Shown here: in pieces, positions 28,505-33,808 of the stretch
How the letters are laid out: each line of letters opens with the position of its first letter
Position numbering within the stretch: the first letter of the stretch is position 1
DNA from: an uncultured delta proteobacterium
Lineage (GTDB): Bacteria > Desulfobacterota > Binatia > Bin18
Direction of reading: 5' to 3'
NCBI GenBank assembly: GCA_963733195.1
Contig: CAVTCR010000081.1
Coordinates: forward strand, 32,001-96,000
Length of the DNA stretch: 64,000 nucleotides
Translations under genes and position numbers: made by a program
The notes under the pieces: generated by a model
Databases searched by the model: none
Told to the model about the DNA's origin: nothing
The model's input: the letters and a program-made list of their open reading frames with translations, nothing else

Positions 28505-28581
28505 CAGGGCAAAACTGCCCAAAAACCCGGTTCATATCGCATTATCAGGGCAAAATGGCAAGTTAATCAATGGTTAGCCGC
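28505..28581 (+). other. Putative attI site
   Basis: Direct repeat CAGGGCAAAA at 28505 and 28546, then core GTTAGCC at 28573; lies between intI and the first cassette. Confidence 0.55.
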
Positions 28582-28622
28582 TGGCTTGGCTTATTCAGCA
28601 ATGTCTGCAAAAGTATGATCGG

Positions 28623-28856
28623 ATGCACTTTGAGATTATTGGAGACATTACTGACATTGAACCGATTGCAACTGGACCCAGTATCCGAATCCTCCCGTTT
28701 CTTCGCAAGCGCTATGGGAGAGGGCGATGGCGGAAACTCAAAGGAAAAGCCCTGGTGCGGCTTGCGGATGGAACCGTCCGGCGCGCCGAACTCCATTGGT
28801 TTGAAGCGCATGGCATCGGCAAACGGAAACTGCGGATCAAACGCTTCCTGGACTAA
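28623..28856 (+). CDS. Putative toxin (77 aa, basic) in an integron cassette
   Basis: WRKLKGKALV...AELHWFEAHGIGKR; first gene of a compact two-gene operon. Confidence 0.7.
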   Translation: MHFEIIGDITDIEPIATGPSIRILPFLRKRYGRGRWRKLKGKALVRLADGTVRRAELHWFEAHGIGKRKLRIKRFLD

Positions 28857-28861
28857 AGACT

Positions 28862-29095
28862 ATGCCTACACGAGTAAAACCCAAGCGACGATTTGCGATT
28901 TGTATTCGGGCCGATGACTCTGATTTGCTGACGCCCCGTCGGATTTACGAAATTCTCCCTGACGCAGACTCGGCCAAATCCCAGTACGTTCGGGTGATCG
29001 ACGATGAGGGCGAGGATTATTTATATCCGGCTTCATATTTTGTGGTTGTAGACTTTCCACCAGCAGTGGAACAAGCCTTATTGCAAGCGTCGTGA
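28862..29095 (+). CDS. Putative antitoxin/immunity protein (77 aa)
   Basis: LTPRRIYEIL...YVRVIDDEGEDYLYP; starts 5 bp after the preceding ORF. Confidence 0.7.
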   Translation: MPTRVKPKRRFAICIRADDSDLLTPRRIYEILPDADSAKSQYVRVIDDEGEDYLYPASYFVVVDFPPAVEQALLQAS

Positions 29096-29110: not shown

Positions 29111-29217
29111 GCGGCTAACAAACGTCCTGGCAGCGGACGCGGCCCCTGTTGCGGATTCTGCTGAATCGTGAAAAGGCAGCGGTTGGGGGCCTTGCCGGCT
29201 GAGGGCAGACGTTAGGC
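29111..29217 (+). other. attC site (integron cassette recombination site)
   Basis: R'' GGCTAAC (29113) ... CAGCGG / CCGGCTG inner arms ... R' GTTAGGC (29211). GCGGCTAAC is the exact reverse complement of GTTAGCCGC at the cassette start (28573). Confidence 0.8.
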
Positions 29218-29282: not shown

Positions 29283-30216
29283 ATGGATGTTAGGTCTCAT
29301 CCCTAATCGCGACAACTCGCACTGGTGATTTAGCCGCACTCGCTCGTCGTACAGAAACGATATGGGCTTCGACTCGCTCTGGATTCCCAGAACACTCGTG
29401 CTCCCCAGCGGTTCCCTTTCCCCGTTATCCTATTTCCTTCGTGGCCAGAGCACTATGGGCGCTGGGTCGATCCCTTTGTGGCGCTCACCGTGGCGGCAAC
29501 TGCGACCACAAGGCGACTCAAATTGGCCACCGGGGTGTTTGCCTCTTGCCCTAGCGCGACCCTCTGGTGACGGCCAAGGTCGTCCTGAACTCTGGACTAT
29601 TATTCTGGAGGGGGCGGGTTACTTGAGGCGTGGGGGCAGGAGGGCTCAAGGAAGAACTCGAAGTGATGGGGACGCCATTCCGATTGCGCTGGCAGCGGTT
29701 GCGGGAGACGGTGGAGGCGATGCGCGTCCTCTGGACGCAGGCAGAGGCGAGTTATATAGTGGGCTAAACTGGTGCAGTTTCCCGCAGTGCGGTGCGAGCC
29801 CAAGCCGGTTCAACTGGGCGGTCCCCCGATCTTGTTAGGCGGACATGGGCCGAAGGCGCTCGAACGGGTAGCGAGGAGTTATGATGGATGGTGTCCAATT
29901 GTTGTGGAGCCACAAAGTTTTGCAGAGGCGGTGACGATCCTGTGCCAGCTCACGCGCGAGGCGGGACGCAATCCGGAGGCATTGCAACTGAGTCCCTGTG
30001 TTGACCCTCAAGAAGGGGAATCTGTCCGGCGACACTCTGAAGGCGTATCGAGAGGCCGGAGCCACCCGGGTGGTGCTCCTTTCCCAACACATCGCGAGCG
30101 AGATGGCTGATGGGCAGGCAGCAGCGTGGATTGAGCGGCTGGCTCCTATCGTTGAGCGGGCACGACCTCTTATAAAGGAGGCTTCTTGGACAGCTAAGAT
30201 AATAGCAGGGGCGTAA
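29283..30216 (+). pseudogene. LLM-class (luciferase-like, F420/flavin-dependent) oxidoreductase; heavily frameshifted
   Basis: MGFDSLWIP, DPFVAL, KLATG, PKPVQLGGPPILLGGHGPKALERVARSYDGWCP, AYREAGATRV. Confidence 0.75.
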
Positions 30217-30420
30217 AGCAGGGCAGACAACAGCGAAGTGGTGCTCACGACTAGGATTTGGCAGCCTGACTCCCATCAGGGCCCCGATGTCAAGTGGGCA
30301 GACGGATGCACTACGGGGGCGGGGTGGCCGTCCGAGAAACAAATGGTGAGTCGTCTTTGCCAAGCGATCGCGGCTGACTTCATTTCGGTTGCTGGTCACA
30401 GCCTGTGGGCTGCACCAAAC

Positions 30421-30775
30421 ACCTATAGAGGGTCAATGTTTCCGTGGACAATGTTCCACGGGAAACAGTGGCATCTCGCAGAACGCCACGCCCTAGAAAC
30501 ACTTCTGTGCCCTCATGCCGGTCTTCTCAATAGCAGCGGGTTGTGTCCAAAGACACTCCTAGTTAGTCTCAGACTCGGGGGAGGGGCAGCCACGGGACCC
30601 TTGGTGACGGATCACCAAGAAGATGAGCGGGAGAGACGGTCCAATCACGGCCTGCGGCTCCGGGCTTTCGTCCAGATATTCCCCACAGTCCGTGCTGTAT
30701 ATAAGGAAGAAGCATCAAGAGGGCTCTCCCTGTGTGGGCCAGTTAGACGGCGGGCTCCGTCTCTCCCCTCAGCGG
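30421..30775 (-). ncRNA. Candidate bridge/seekRNA of the IS110 element
   Basis: 11-bp perfect IR at 30629-30639/30757-30767, hairpin 30600-30619, second stem 30508-30514/30581-30588, repeated CTAACT motif in both loops. Confidence 0.55.
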
Positions 30776-31818
30776 TTACGCGGTCACAAAGCGTTGCAGA
30801 TCAAACGCCTGTTCCCGCGTGAGCATGTAATACACGGCGCGGCCCAACTTGTGGGCGAGCACGGTGAGCGCTTTGGCTTTGCCGTGTTTGTGTTCGAGTG
30901 TGGCAAAATACTCTTTCCCCGGCTGACTCTGGCGGATAAACAGCACGGCGGCTTCGGCAAAAGCCCAGCGAAGATGGACGTTGCCAATCTTTTTGCCCGA
31001 AGTCCCCAGTCGTTTGCCATTGGATTCTTTGGCGCACTTCACCAAGCGACAGTAGGAGACAAAATCTTGTACACGGGGAAAGCGGCAATGTCCTGAATCT
31101 CATATAGGATGACCAACGCCAGAATCTGTCCGATCCCGGGAACCGACTGCAACCGGGCGAACGTCTGGACATCATCGGTTTTGGCACTGCGCGTGAGGTA
31201 GAGTTCCACTTCGCCTAATAACTGATCGTAGTGATCAATGAGCGACACGTCGACCTCGATTGCCTTGTGGACACTGGGATCGGGGAAATGGTCGGCGACA
31301 TCTTCGCGATTCGCTTTGTTCGCCAGCCGTTTGCCGATCTCCGGCAGATTGTACTGACTATTGGTATTGTGAATGTGCGCTAAGAGTTCGGCCCGTTTAC
31401 GGGCGAGATGACAGCGGCGCCGGAGTAAATCTCGCGTCGCCCGCATCTCTGAAGGATAGACATAGGCTTGGGGGAACATCCCACCGCGCAATAAGACGGC
31501 AATCTTCTGCGCATCAATTTTATCGTTCTTGGCTTTGCCCCCATGAATCGCCTTCATATAGAGGGCGTGTCCCAGAACGAAGGCAATCCCTTCCTTCTGA
31601 CACAGGTCCGCCAGCCAATACCACGTGAACATACATTCGACGCCGACGACCAGATCTTCACGATACGGGGCAATGAGCCGTAAAAATGCTTCCGGGGTCG
31701 TCGGCAAATTCTTGTGGACCAATTTCGTGCCGTGTTGATCGAGAATACAGACGTACATCGCTCGCGCATGTAGATCGATGCCACAATAGTGTTTATGTTG
31801 GTGCGTGTAAAAGTTCAT
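30776..31818 (-). CDS. IS110-family transposase (DEDD RuvC + Tnp20 domain); frameshift ~31075
   Basis: YCGIDLH, VGVEC, KAKNDKIDA, LQSVPGIGQILA, KESNGK...GNVHLRWAFAEAA...LAHKLGRAVYYML. Confidence 0.93.
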
Positions 31819-31904
31819 CCAGGTTTCCTCCTTGGGGGGTGGATTGTTGGGATACAGCCATCCTACCGCTGCCACTCGCAGCAAAGGAGGCCTGGATGAG
31901 TATC

Positions 31905-31992
31905 AAGGCGCGCCACCGCATCGCTGCCCTGTGGCGGTTCTGACTAAACCTGAAAGGATACATCTAGCCGCGGCGTGTGATGGCAACGGCAT
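31905..31992 (+). other. Second, degenerate attC-like site interrupted by the IS110
   Basis: GCTGCCCTGTGGCGGTTCTGACTAAACCTGAAAGG aligns to attC1 GCGGCCCCTGTTGCGGATTCTGCTGAATCGTGAAAAGG; the R' end is not clean. Confidence 0.6.
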
Positions 31993-32146
31993 ACTTAACC
32001 TACGCACTGGCTTCGTGCGATTCAGAACTCCGTCCAATGACGTAAGGCTTCGCGCTGTCTATTGTGAATTGTCTGGTCCGCGACCGCCCCTAAACAGCCC
32101 CCCCAACCACCCTCACGTAGGAGATAGGCACGCGGCTGCTGCGTTG

Positions 32147-33808
32147 TCACACATCATTCGCCTGTGTTAACGCCCGTGTAATAAGCTGTTGCGCTTCCTC
32201 TTGAATCTGGCGTAGATGCTCTACGCCGAGGAAGCTCTCGGTGTAGAGCTTGTAGATATTTTCCGTGCCGGATGGGCGCGCCGCAAACCACCCGTTGGCG
32301 GTCATCACTTTGAGCCCGCCAATCGCGCTGTTATTCCCAGGGGCGGTCGTTAGTACTGTTTGGATCTTTTCACCCGCAAGCGTATCGCTCGATAATTGCT
32401 CTGGTGAGAGTCGTTGCAATTGCGCTTTCTGTTCTGCCGTGGCAGGAGCGTCGATGCGTTCGTACACTGGATCACCATACTTATCCGCAAGGTCACGATA
32501 ATACGCCCCTGGGTCGCGACCAGTTTTGGCCATGATCTCTGCCGCTAGTAGGCCTAAGATGATGCCATCTTTGTCGGTTGTCCATACCATTCCGTCACGG
32601 CGCAGAAAAGACGCTCCTGCACTCTCTTCACCACCGAACCCAAGCGTACCGCTCATCAACCCTTCGACGAACCACTTGAATCCCACCGGGGTCTCAATCA
32701 GCGGGCGACCAAGTTGGTTGGCAATACGATCGATCATGCTGCTACTGACCACTGTCTTTCCTACAGCCGCGTTTGCCTGCCAGTTCGGACGGTGCTGAAA
32801 AAGATAGGCAATGGCAACGGTCAGATGTCGTTCGGATTCAACAAACCTGCACTTCGAGTGACAATGCCGTGACGATCATGGTCAGGGTCATTCGCCCAGG
32901 CGATGTCAAATCGGTCTTTGAGAGCGATCAAACTCGCCATGGCATAAGGGGAGGAACAATCCATGCGGATCCTCCCGTCCCAGTCTAGCGTCATGAACGA
33001 GAACGTTGGGTCGACCGTGTCGTGCATGACCGTAAATTCCAGTCCATAGTGTTCAGCAATTGCGCTCCAGTATGCAACCCCAGCACCACCCAACGGATCA
33101 GCGCCAAGCTTCAGCCCGGAGGCACGGATGATACTCATGTCCACGACGTTATCGAGGTCAGCAACATATGTCTGGAGATAGTCGTAGCGATGGGTCGTGG
33201 AAGCAACGCGAGCTTGTTCGTAGGGAATGCGTTTCACCTCATGAAGATTATGAGCAAGCAGCATGTTAGCCTGTGCCTCAATCCACTGCGTCACATGTGT
33301 GTCAGGTGGTCCGCCATGCGGCGGATTATATTTGAAGCCACCGTCCTCAGGTGGATTATGCGAGGGCGTGATCACGATCCCATCGGCAAGCTGACTCTTC
33401 CGTCCACGGTTGTAAGTGAGAATGGCATGAGAAATGACAGGGGTTGGAGTATAGCCGTCGTTGTTATCTATTCTTACCTCAACCCTATTTGCCGCCAGCA
33501 TTTCCAGCGCCGTAGTAAAAGCAGGCTCGGAGAGCGCATGGAATGTCTCCCAAGAAGAGTGGACCGCTAATGTCGTGCTTCTGGCGATACCAGCAAATCG
33601 CCTGACTCACCGCAAGAATGTGGGCTTCGTTAAAAGAATGGGTAAACGCCGAGCCTCGGTGCCCTGAGGTGCCAAAGGCTACACGTTGCGCGGGCACTGC
33701 GGAGTCAGGATGACCCGTATAATAAGCGGAGATCAATTGTGGGACATTGATCAGCATTGTTGGTTCTGCACGAAGACCAGCTAACGGGCTGATGCGCGTC
33801 ATGGCCAT
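32147..33808 (-). CDS. pgm: Phosphoglucomutase (alpha-D-glucose-phosphate-specific); frameshifted
   Basis: [65 protein letters not shown]. Confidence 0.93.

Follow-up and report, generated by a model that had tools for sequence, protein, structure and literature searches.

The 64,000-nucleotide window considered here, taken from contig CAVTCR010000081.1 of an uncultured delta proteobacterium (assembly GCA_963733195.1), contains an insertion sequence (IS) of the IS1111 type, which occupies the minus strand from window position 30272 to 31905 (1,634 bp) and splits an attC site. With a probability that we would put at roughly 0.8, this is a non-autonomous, frameshifted copy from a clade that inserts in one direction only between the R'' and L'' boxes of attC, and the region 3' of its transposase gene (tnp) would encode an RNA carrying guide sequences. 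The genome documents the spread of an attC-specific IS to at least six cassette sites and its later decay, with one intact copy and several footprints left.

Limits of the element and its attC target

A blastn search of 30272-31905 against the 87 contigs of the same genome yields five full-length copies beyond that of the window, six altogether, all aligning over positions 1-1634 at 80-91% identity. When the copies are aligned with 150 nt of flank, the flanks diverge beyond 30272 and 31905, attC sequence excepted; on the lower-numbered side conservation ends only at the R''-like heptamer GCCTGAC (30264-30270), and on the other side the limit is ...GAGTATCA at 31905, the TG copy of the core at the element's left end being counted in. 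The original prediction, which was made from the letters of the window alone, had placed the element at 30421-31904. Its upper limit was right to within one nucleotide, whereas its lower limit fell short by 149 nt, the six copies and 42 parsed relatives all running to 30272. This conservation means that the 3' non-coding region measures about 505 nt and not about 355 nt, as had been supposed; together with 86 nt upstream of tnp this is the IS1111 layout, in which the longer non-coding side lies downstream.

The ends have the subterminal repeats of 7-17 bp and the terminal extensions that characterise IS1111 elements, namely TGATACTC plus ATCCAGGCC on the left, and GGCC(C)TGAT plus GGG on the right. 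The left terminal extension (31898-31905, minus strand) begins with the TG core copy at 31904-31905, and a TGATAC-type start is kept in most relatives with a parsed left end. It is followed by the left subterminal inverted repeat ATCCAGGCCTCC (31886-31897, minus strand), which pairs with GG(G)GCC(C)TGAT of the right end. The latter (30272-30293, minus strand) comprises a -35 hexamer, TTGACA, at 30288-30293, and the right subterminal repeat with the terminal bases, GGGGCCCTGATGGG, at 30272-30285. Read by eye and without a formal statistic, the subterminal repeats covary between clades, as in ATTAAGGCC / GGCCTTATAA, and in relatives ATTAAGGCCCCCC pairs by eye with GGGGGGCCTTATAA. Joining the two ends on paper creates TTGACA-17 nt-GATACT (GATACT at 31899-31904), a geometry from which a promoter at the junction of a circular form is predicted; the spacing between CTTGAC and the end is constant in 41 of 42 parsed relatives, and in the remaining one (L086) it is shifted by one base.

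The transposase gene (30776-31818, minus strand; ATG at 31816-31818, stop at 30776-30778) has lost its frame within 31066-31092, where the window copy is one base short relative to its sisters, and is split into open reading frames (ORFs) of 281 and 89 amino acids in different frames. Pfam recognises DEDD_Tnp_IS110 (PF01548, 2e-17) in this copy and Transposase_20 (PF02371) on both pieces. Among the six copies only that on contig C34 retains an open frame, which matches the NCBIfam model NF033542, 'IS110 family RNA-guided transposase', at 2.5e-60 and 204 bits against a cut-off of 140. The presence of DEDD and Transposase_20 domains with the catalytic serine region makes the enzyme a member of the IS110 superfamily. 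The intact frame is about 345 amino acids long to the usual stop (358 with read-through in copy C34b); a transposase of 330-350 amino acids and a longer non-coding region downstream of tnp are given as marks of IS1111 in the account of PMC11187229. The first match of the protein is a distant one to ISCro4, which extends over the ESG serine stretch, and IS621 comes second (9t56, 1.2e-07; 8wt6, 7.4e-07). The stretch that would correspond to the IS1111 motif GL-P----S(T)G is RLVKSAKESG in C34b and RLVKCAKESN in the window copy, such that SG is kept in the intact copy and the G and P positions differ. The Pfam and NCBIfam matches and the six-copy alignment bear out the earlier view of an IS110/IS1111 element on the minus strand inside an attC. 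The programmable recombinase that had also been proposed is recovered as an IS1111-type enzyme with a guide-like RNA, but the window copy itself is a pseudogene, which could move only with transposase supplied by the intact C34 copy.

The target is best described by the empty site, which is reconstructed as GCCTGAC-TAGGC-GCGCCACC and not as the join CACCAAAC|AAGGCG that followed from the earlier limits. This reconstruction has the R''-spacer-L'' pattern of the uninterrupted attC sites of the genome, which are about 105 nt long and consist of R'' GNCTAAC, a 5-nt spacer, L'' GCGCCACCGCATCGCTGCCC, a central part, L' and R' CGTTAGCC. On the plus strand of the window the interrupted site, attC2, starts with the degenerate R'' GCCTGAC and the first spacer base (30264-30271) and resumes after the element (31906-32000) with the remaining spacer AGGC, the L'' box GCGCCACCGCATCGCTGCCC, the central part and a degenerate R', CTTAACC. 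Its remainder matches at 31893-31987 (1.2e-12) a hidden Markov model (HMM) of attC built from 21 hits of the same genome, and the repeat to the right of the element recurs without the element in at least 16 places. The HMM finds 61 matches on 27 contigs, several of them in cassette-like arrays; it misses attC1 of the preceding cassette (GGCTAAC...GTTAGGC, 29113-29217, plus strand), which was found by pattern match and reading of the sequence. An intact integron integrase is encoded elsewhere in the genome (C33:20009-20953, 477 bits against a cut-off of 265), and the attC context proposed at the outset stands.

All six copies agree in position and orientation, lying after an R''-type heptamer (GCCTAAC, GCCGAAC, AGCTAAC, GTCTAAC or GGCTAAC in the other five) and before an L'' of the GCGCCACC type, with tnp antisense to the attC top strand. 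The further copies are thus in attC sites, as anticipated, and show the site- and orientation-specific insertion near the attC 5' end, antisense to the cassettes, by which the IS1111-attC group is recognised. In the sense of the transposase, empty sites read L''-GNNNN-GTTAGCC and occupied sites L''-G-NNN | TGATAC...ATAGG | NG-TTAGRC, TG being the element's copy of the core and NG that of the target, and the sequences of the occupied sites indicate that no target duplication is made. Four spacer bases stay on the left in four to five of the six copies, the fifth remaining with R'' on the right. Most attC sites of this genome have G at the fifth spacer position, so that right junctions read GG and the second core base alone is shared. 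In relatives the right junction is mostly ATAAG-TG-TTAGGC, that is, with a two-base core TG common to target and element. The right flanks of 40 relatives add up to GTTAGGC (G40 T40 T39 A28 G27 G27 C25), and their left flanks resemble attC L'' boxes in reverse complement. One flank (L047) is almost what we take to be a classical aadA-type attC, and that of Vibrio campbellii presumably resembles a Vibrio repeat.

Candidate guides in the 3' region

The 3' region was folded with RNAalifold on the six copies and on 42 relatives, namely those of 88 elements in which an internal site and a CTTGAC-type end were found within reach. Domain 1 (30629-30768, minus strand, as are all segments below) is seen in the six copies and consists of a stem, P1 (30757-30768 with 30629-30639), which encloses loop 1, the proposed target-binding loop. 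A P1 of 8 bp or more is formed in 32 of 40 sequences (W and C6, which lack the anchor pattern, were left out); its helix occurs in 29 different versions and as a rule pairs better than shuffled partners do. In domain 2 (30507-30588) the stems P3 (about 30581-30588 with 30507-30514) and P4 enclose loop 2, which is composed of a 5' strand CUGAGACUAACUAGG (30558-30572), an inner hairpin (30543-30556) and a 3' strand UAUUGAGAAGACCGG (30518-30532). The hairpin CUUGGUGAUCCGUCACCAAG (30600-30619) separates the domains in the six copies and close relatives and is replaced by other sequence in distant ones. A long-range helix, P0 (30371-30592; UGGCUG 30587-30592 with CAGCCG 30371-30376), closes a multiloop which holds domain 2, several variable hairpins and the junction mimic described below.

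Both-sided changes occur in three of the six pairs of P0 (in 8, 10 and 16 sequences). For the set formed by P0, P3, P4 and helix 5, which includes the inner hairpin and the helix around the variable hairpins, 95.4% of 957 cells are paired, and 146 cells carry double changes against 44 +/- 8 in shuffles (0/500 as high; slid controls 15-23), the covariation score being 0.444 against 0.177 in shuffles (again 0/500 as high). The 3' region is accordingly a conserved structured RNA with compensatory changes, and no Rfam family matches 30100-32100 at E values up to 1. The two large stems that had been recognised from the window, with the hairpin between them, recur at the same coordinates, P1 and P3 with compensatory changes, the hairpin as a feature of close copies only. 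The motifs GUCUAACU and GACUAACU likewise lie in the two loops, with their CUAAC kept across most of the 42 aligned relatives. A pairing of GUCU of loop 1 with the right repeat, which RNAalifold suggested (columns 176-179 with 779-782), shows almost no double changes and was rejected.

How might such an RNA be linked to the target? In loop 1 the 5' strand CCGUCUAACUGG (30739-30750) is complementary to the R'' box of attC in the transposase sense, G-TTAGAC-GG, and is proposed as the right-target guide, while the 3' strand GGCCG-UG-AUUGGA (30640-30652) has the same sense as the spacer, the core and the first two bases of the left end and is proposed as the left-target guide. The two strands thus show the match pattern of a seekRNA, the first being complementary to G-TTAGRC and the second equal to the spacer plus TG, both including the core G; the top-strand match lies 5' of the bottom-strand match and overlaps it at the core. 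A large clade (363 relatives) with a short variable spacer makes natural covariation between RNA and target, and between RNA and donor, measurable without experiment. For the 3' strand, the nine bases before UG-AUUGG and the nine flank bases before the left-end TG agree in 239 of 594 comparisons (66 unique pairs), whereas permuted flanks give 189.1 +/- 9.8 and never as high a value in 5000 trials. Only positions -4, -3 and -2, which belong to the attC spacer, contribute to the excess (36, 35 and 28 identities against 25.7, 16.9 and 16.6 expected). The complement of the 5' strand agrees with the right flank in 268 positions against 251.6 +/- 5.2 (3/5000 as high), and one locus, L061, carries a private GTTGTGC variant in loop 1 and flank alike. 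The permutation tests, those on loop 2 below included, were confined to loci in which the anchors were found (67 for the left-target guide, 41 for the comparisons with the right flank and 50 for that with the left end).

The picture differs for loop 2, in which covariation was found neither with the right flank (580/5000 permutations as high) nor with the left end (689/5000). The test of RNA against target that had been suggested thus supports both strands of loop 1 and leaves loop 2 without support, and the two-loop guide stands in its first half alone. Two candidates for a left-end guide were rejected for want of covariation, UGAUACU in loop 2 (nine sequences) and GGAUGAG (three sequences), the latter being explained by stem P3. 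In a group of Nitrospirota-clade loci (L050, L058, L069, L071, L078, L082, L103, L105 and similar ones), the 5' strand of loop 2, UGAUACUAAC, equals the left-end start TGATACT and overlaps CUAAC, which could be a clade-specific left-end guide or a coincidence.

A third guide-like segment, which the two-loop anatomy had missed, lies exactly at its cut. The sequence CCCUCUAUAGG-UG-UUUGG (30415-30432) has the same sense as the right end followed by core and R'', and the cut at 30420|30421 corresponds by homology to the true right junction, which in the window reads ...CUGAUGGG-AG-UCAGG. The pentamer before UG is the same internally and at the right end in 51 of 56 parsed loci, and in 40 of 44 on a transposase-gene tree. 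Five variants of mimic and end occur (ATAAG, ATAGG, ATATG, ATAGA and AGAGG), and Fitch parsimony on the same tree gives seven changes for the mimic and eight for the end on the same branches, with at least six co-changes. Two of the 56 loci (L027 and L029) had a false right-end parse. The end of L029 is truncated; L027, a close relative with a tnp match at 89% identity to the intact copy, proved concordant on the tree when re-parsed, with a T-to-G change at mimic and end both. Even in elements whose right junction reads GG, the mimic invariably contains UG, in agreement with the core of the left end, and the bases that follow, UUUGGUGCAG, hardly vary and fold into a conserved hairpin. We infer that the mimic is a donor-side guide, copying the right end and core with a short R''-like tail and exposed in the multiloop, where the donor-binding nucleotides of IS1111 bridge RNAs are often placed according to PMC11208160. 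A junction-like sequence inside an IS1111 element can then be a guide rather than an end, which makes it a trap for boundary calling; many ends listed in ISfinder are called doubtful in PMC11187229.

Taken together, these features suggest a possible mechanism. By analogy with the seekRNA of ISEc11 and ISKpn4 and the bridge RNA of IS621, the element would excise as a circle, and the junction promoter would drive one transcript comprising transposase and RNA. Loop 1 would bind the target, its 5' strand CCGUCUAAC pairing with the transposase-sense strand of core G and R'', and its 3' strand NNNU-UG-AU with the opposite strand of spacer and core, the two matches overlapping at the core. The multiloop segment AUAGG-UG-UUUGG, held under the long-range helix, would pair with the bottom strand of right end and core and so read the donor. 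On a further and more tentative proposal, to which we attach clearly less than even odds, the guide RNA of this clade would be tripartite and not a two-loop bridge, with loop 1 reading both strands of attC, the right-junction copy reading the donor, its UU(UGG) tail perhaps stabilising the product, and loop 2 perhaps re-reading R'' beside the integrated element, which would tie excision to attC. If this were true, the natural mimic and end variants AAG, AGG, ATG, AGA and AGAGG would constitute a ready-made code for the recognition of their own ends by IS1111 enzymes, which is stated as an open question in PMC11187229.

Other explanations of the same region have to be considered. The element might end at 30421, with 30272-30420 as target attC or unrelated flank and an RNA of about 355 nt that would be a simple bridge whose two loops both read R''; the resemblance of 30413-30432 to a right-end/attC junction, ATAGGT|GTTTGG, and the CUAAC in both loops would fit. 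Yet the 149 nt in question are kept in six copies with different left flanks, are present in 42/42 relatives from many phyla, each parsed to the right end, and include the right inverted repeat as well as the conserved -35 box, while the uninterrupted attC sites of the genome contain nothing like them and loop 2 shows no covariation with the target, such that this explanation is scarcely credible. A modular element, in which the distal 150 nt would be a hitch-hiking module like ssr9 in ISPpu9 and the internal site an alternative recombination end acting at the level of DNA and not an RNA guide, is less remote but still unlikely. It would account for the imitation of end, core and R'' by the internal site, and for a remnant on contig C47 that starts close to it, and circles of ISPpu9 containing the transposase module, the small-RNA module or both are reported in PMC12288879. 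In none of the 56 loci with both sites parsed, however, does the internal site form the end of the element, and a clean module standing alone between attC halves was not seen. Of the four other remnants found by blastn, one is an internal deletion, and the remaining three have a limit at some unrelated internal point, two of them where they begin and one where it ends. None of the remnants is a clean copy of the distal 150 nt by itself, which speaks against independent movement of a module like ssr9 of ISPpu9. Moreover, UUUGGUGCAG after the internal site is nearly invariant and forms a conserved hairpin, the junction promoter requires the distal end, and long-lasting covariation of two DNA sites is the behaviour of guide and target.

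It is also conceivable, though very improbable, that the 3' region is conserved for terminators, mRNA stability or protein-binding DNA and that the transposase protein picks the target. In favour of this, the GTTAGGC target box is nearly invariant, so that most of the right-target match is not separable from simple conservation. Against this, the compensatory base-pair changes argue for a folded RNA, the variable attC spacer covaries with four bases of loop 1, the private GTTGTGC of L061 appears in loop and flank, and RNA proved essential in the experiments on four IS1111 members described in PMC11187229.

Several observations nevertheless weigh against our reading of a guide RNA directed at attC. 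In the window copy, whose attC is degenerate, the right-target guide matches at 7/10 and the left-target guide at 5/7 positions by eye, and this decayed copy is also an exception to the concordance of mimic and end. So is one lineage (L043, L044 and L049, from metagenome-assembled genomes (MAGs) of Syntrophobacterales/Desulfobacterota), with a mimic AUAGG against an end ATAAG-GG, which could reflect a shifted register or recent retargeting. In five of the six copies the flanking base that adjoins the right end (NG) is not that of the element's TG, and a strict shared core is therefore not seen in this genome. A guide for the left end, that is, for the right-donor side, was not found in the RNAs of relatives, where matches are limited to some clades. 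The permutations do not remove kinship among the elements or host-specific composition. In a crude test, a full attC partner box was found near 11/36 relatives against 3/36 controls, with a median fold z of -1.3, and attC targeting is therefore proven for this genome only and probable for the clade. Lastly, RNA, circle and transposition are predicted from sequence, with two contigs over domain 2 as the sole hint of expression. In an index of public sequencing runs, 20 rows contain 0.10-0.18 of the element's words and none contains half. Four runs were examined: three DNA runs from soil and rhizosphere hold many contigs of relatives, and one metatranscriptome holds two contigs of relatives, 116 and 124 nt long, over 30488-30599 (domain 2, not loop 1), together with pieces of tnp. 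This is a weak hint of expression at most, because an RNA library can contain DNA and the contigs show no ends, and no meaning attaches to the stretches of the element that this run leaves uncovered.

Relatives, remnants and neighbouring genes

The clade is widespread in environmental genomes and not rare. A scan of species genomes found 363 relatives, of which 80 loci at 60-91% identity were kept; the closest of these come from MAGs labelled Deltaproteobacteria and Binatia, and others from Acidobacteriota, Nitrospirota, Desulfobacterota and further groups. The loci are built alike throughout: the left end TGATACTCAT and a subterminal repeat come first, the start codon is reached after about 85 nt, the 3' region measures 470-660 nt, and the right end consists of CTTGAC at a fixed distance (41/42 parsed), the other subterminal repeat and ATA(A/G)G. 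A tblastn search against plasmids returned 988 records, with about 15 above 40% identity among the matches listed, the best being from Candidatus Manganitrophus (66%) and from Pseudoalteromonas, Alteromonas and Vibrio campbellii (48-52%). Beyond these 15 marine and Nitrospirota matches none of those listed exceeds about 33% identity, which makes a distant relationship to the clinical attC-targeting members probable, if those are in the plasmid collection at all. For ISKpn4, ISPst6 and ISPa21, which were sought in that collection by tblastn, no annotated candidate appeared among the matches listed. Matches on Klebsiella and Escherichia plasmids proved to be about 24% identical and of the ISEc45 type, and one on a Pseudomonas aeruginosa plasmid (33%) does not lie in an integron. 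The idea of an under-sampled lineage is not sustained by the 363 relatives, nor its novelty by the seekRNAs of ISKpn4 and ISPst6 described in PMC11187229.

In the genome itself, five shorter remnants found by blastn match the right-hand 60-160 nt of the element, and a sixth was seen by eye. The remnant at C49:9721-9833 resembles a miniature inverted-repeat transposable element, being an internal-deletion derivative in which the left end is fused to the distal region and both ends are kept. Those on C47 and C56 are 5'-truncated pieces, and that on C73 is a fragment without the last 70 nt. At C5:56248-56309 and C62:322180-322290 (the latter seen by eye), right-end stubs of 55-62 nt are fused directly to attC, and next to the C62 stub the attC L'' box and the 5-nt spacer are intact, as if one end of the deletion fell exactly at the left junction. 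Several decayed copies together with footprints, the pattern of the present genome, were reportedly noted for the IS1111-attC group too by Tetu & Holmes in 2008. Decay extends to the integrase genes, of which at least five fragments with stops or truncations were seen besides the intact gene (contigs C33, C32, C1, C66, C41 and C62; loci L106-L109), several sharing contigs with attC arrays or IS copies, and the genome seems to hold many decayed integrons.

Within the window, attC1 comes first, the site split by the element second, and housekeeping genes after it, which places the element in the last attC of a two-site array without an integrase. These downstream genes encode a phosphoglucomutase in two pieces and then a polyphosphate kinase. 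The former, a phosphoglucomutase/phosphomannomutase adjoining the array (32147-33501, minus strand), is divided between two ORFs, domains I-II at 32821-33501 and domains III-IV at 32147-32752, which an assembly error, a frameshift or a pseudogene could explain. In the cassette that precedes the split attC (29362-30110), a luciferase-like monooxygenase is present only as pieces in overlapping frames (PF00296, 2.3e-07 on 29772-30110), apparently a decayed cassette gene. The cassette that ends in attC1 (28570-29095) has two small ORFs of 115 and 77 amino acids, for which no Pfam match was found and whose size and pairing are typical of cassette-borne small proteins.

Comparison with known systems

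The nearest known counterparts are the IS1111-attC elements ISPst6, ISPa21, ISKpn4 and ISPa25, with which the present element shares an IS1111-type transposase, a long downstream non-coding region, and matches to the top and then the bottom strand that overlap. Such matches are described for the seekRNAs of IS1111 members in PMC11187229, where target matches are given for ISKpn4, ISPst6 and ISPa25, and the seekRNAs of the attC-targeting ISKpn4 and ISPst6 were purified, sequenced and matched to their attC target in 2024. ISPa21 and ISPst6 are reported near the attC 5' end and antisense to the cassettes (PMC3001079). By its features rather than by phylogeny, the element appears to work like these attC-targeting members, every testable feature of the family having been found. 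It differs from the seekRNAs reported in PMC11187229 (82-86 nt in the short and 145-170 nt in the long forms) in its region of about 505 nt with two CUAAC loops and a separate mimic.

ISEc11, as described in PMC11187229, forms circles whose junction contains a promoter, and its excision depends on flanks derived from the target; its RNA lies downstream of tnp, and its 7-bp left extension holds a copy of target bases once read as a duplication. The position of the RNA and the two-base TG core, arranged as in the ISEc11 left extension, are alike here, these properties being so far predicted only; by contrast, the target of ISEc11 is a linear sequence of 12 bp, and its non-coding region is shorter (a fragment of about 270 bp). 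ISPpu9 also has a structured small-RNA region downstream of tnp and internal end-like repeats (PMC12288879). Its targets, unlike the attC sites concerned here, are REP sequences, and in the remnants of the present genome there is no sign of the distal part moving alone.

With IS621 and ISCro4 the element shares a recombinase of the DEDD and serine type and, as proposed here, separate target and donor guides with a common core. It differs from them in that the RNA lies 3' and not 5' of the gene, the subterminal repeats are long, the order of the strand matches is reversed, and the donor guide would be placed in a multiloop instead of a second simple internal loop. Handshake dinucleotides, by which the guides extend two bases into the partner substrate, are described for IS621 in PMC13626964. 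Here the bases after the core, AU in loop 1 (UG-AU, left-target guide) and UU in the mimic (UG-UU), are the first bases of the partner substrate and may parallel that handshake, except that the extension would belong to the guides pairing with the bottom strand, whereas in IS621 it stands beside the top-strand guides.

Since the seekRNAs of ISKpn4 and ISPst6 were demonstrated in 2024, the present element belongs to a known kind, and the principle remains unchanged. What the analysis adds is a corrected anatomy, a quantified covariation of guide and flank, and a junction mimic that covaries with the right end, the last of which bears on the still open matter of how IS1111 ends are recognised.

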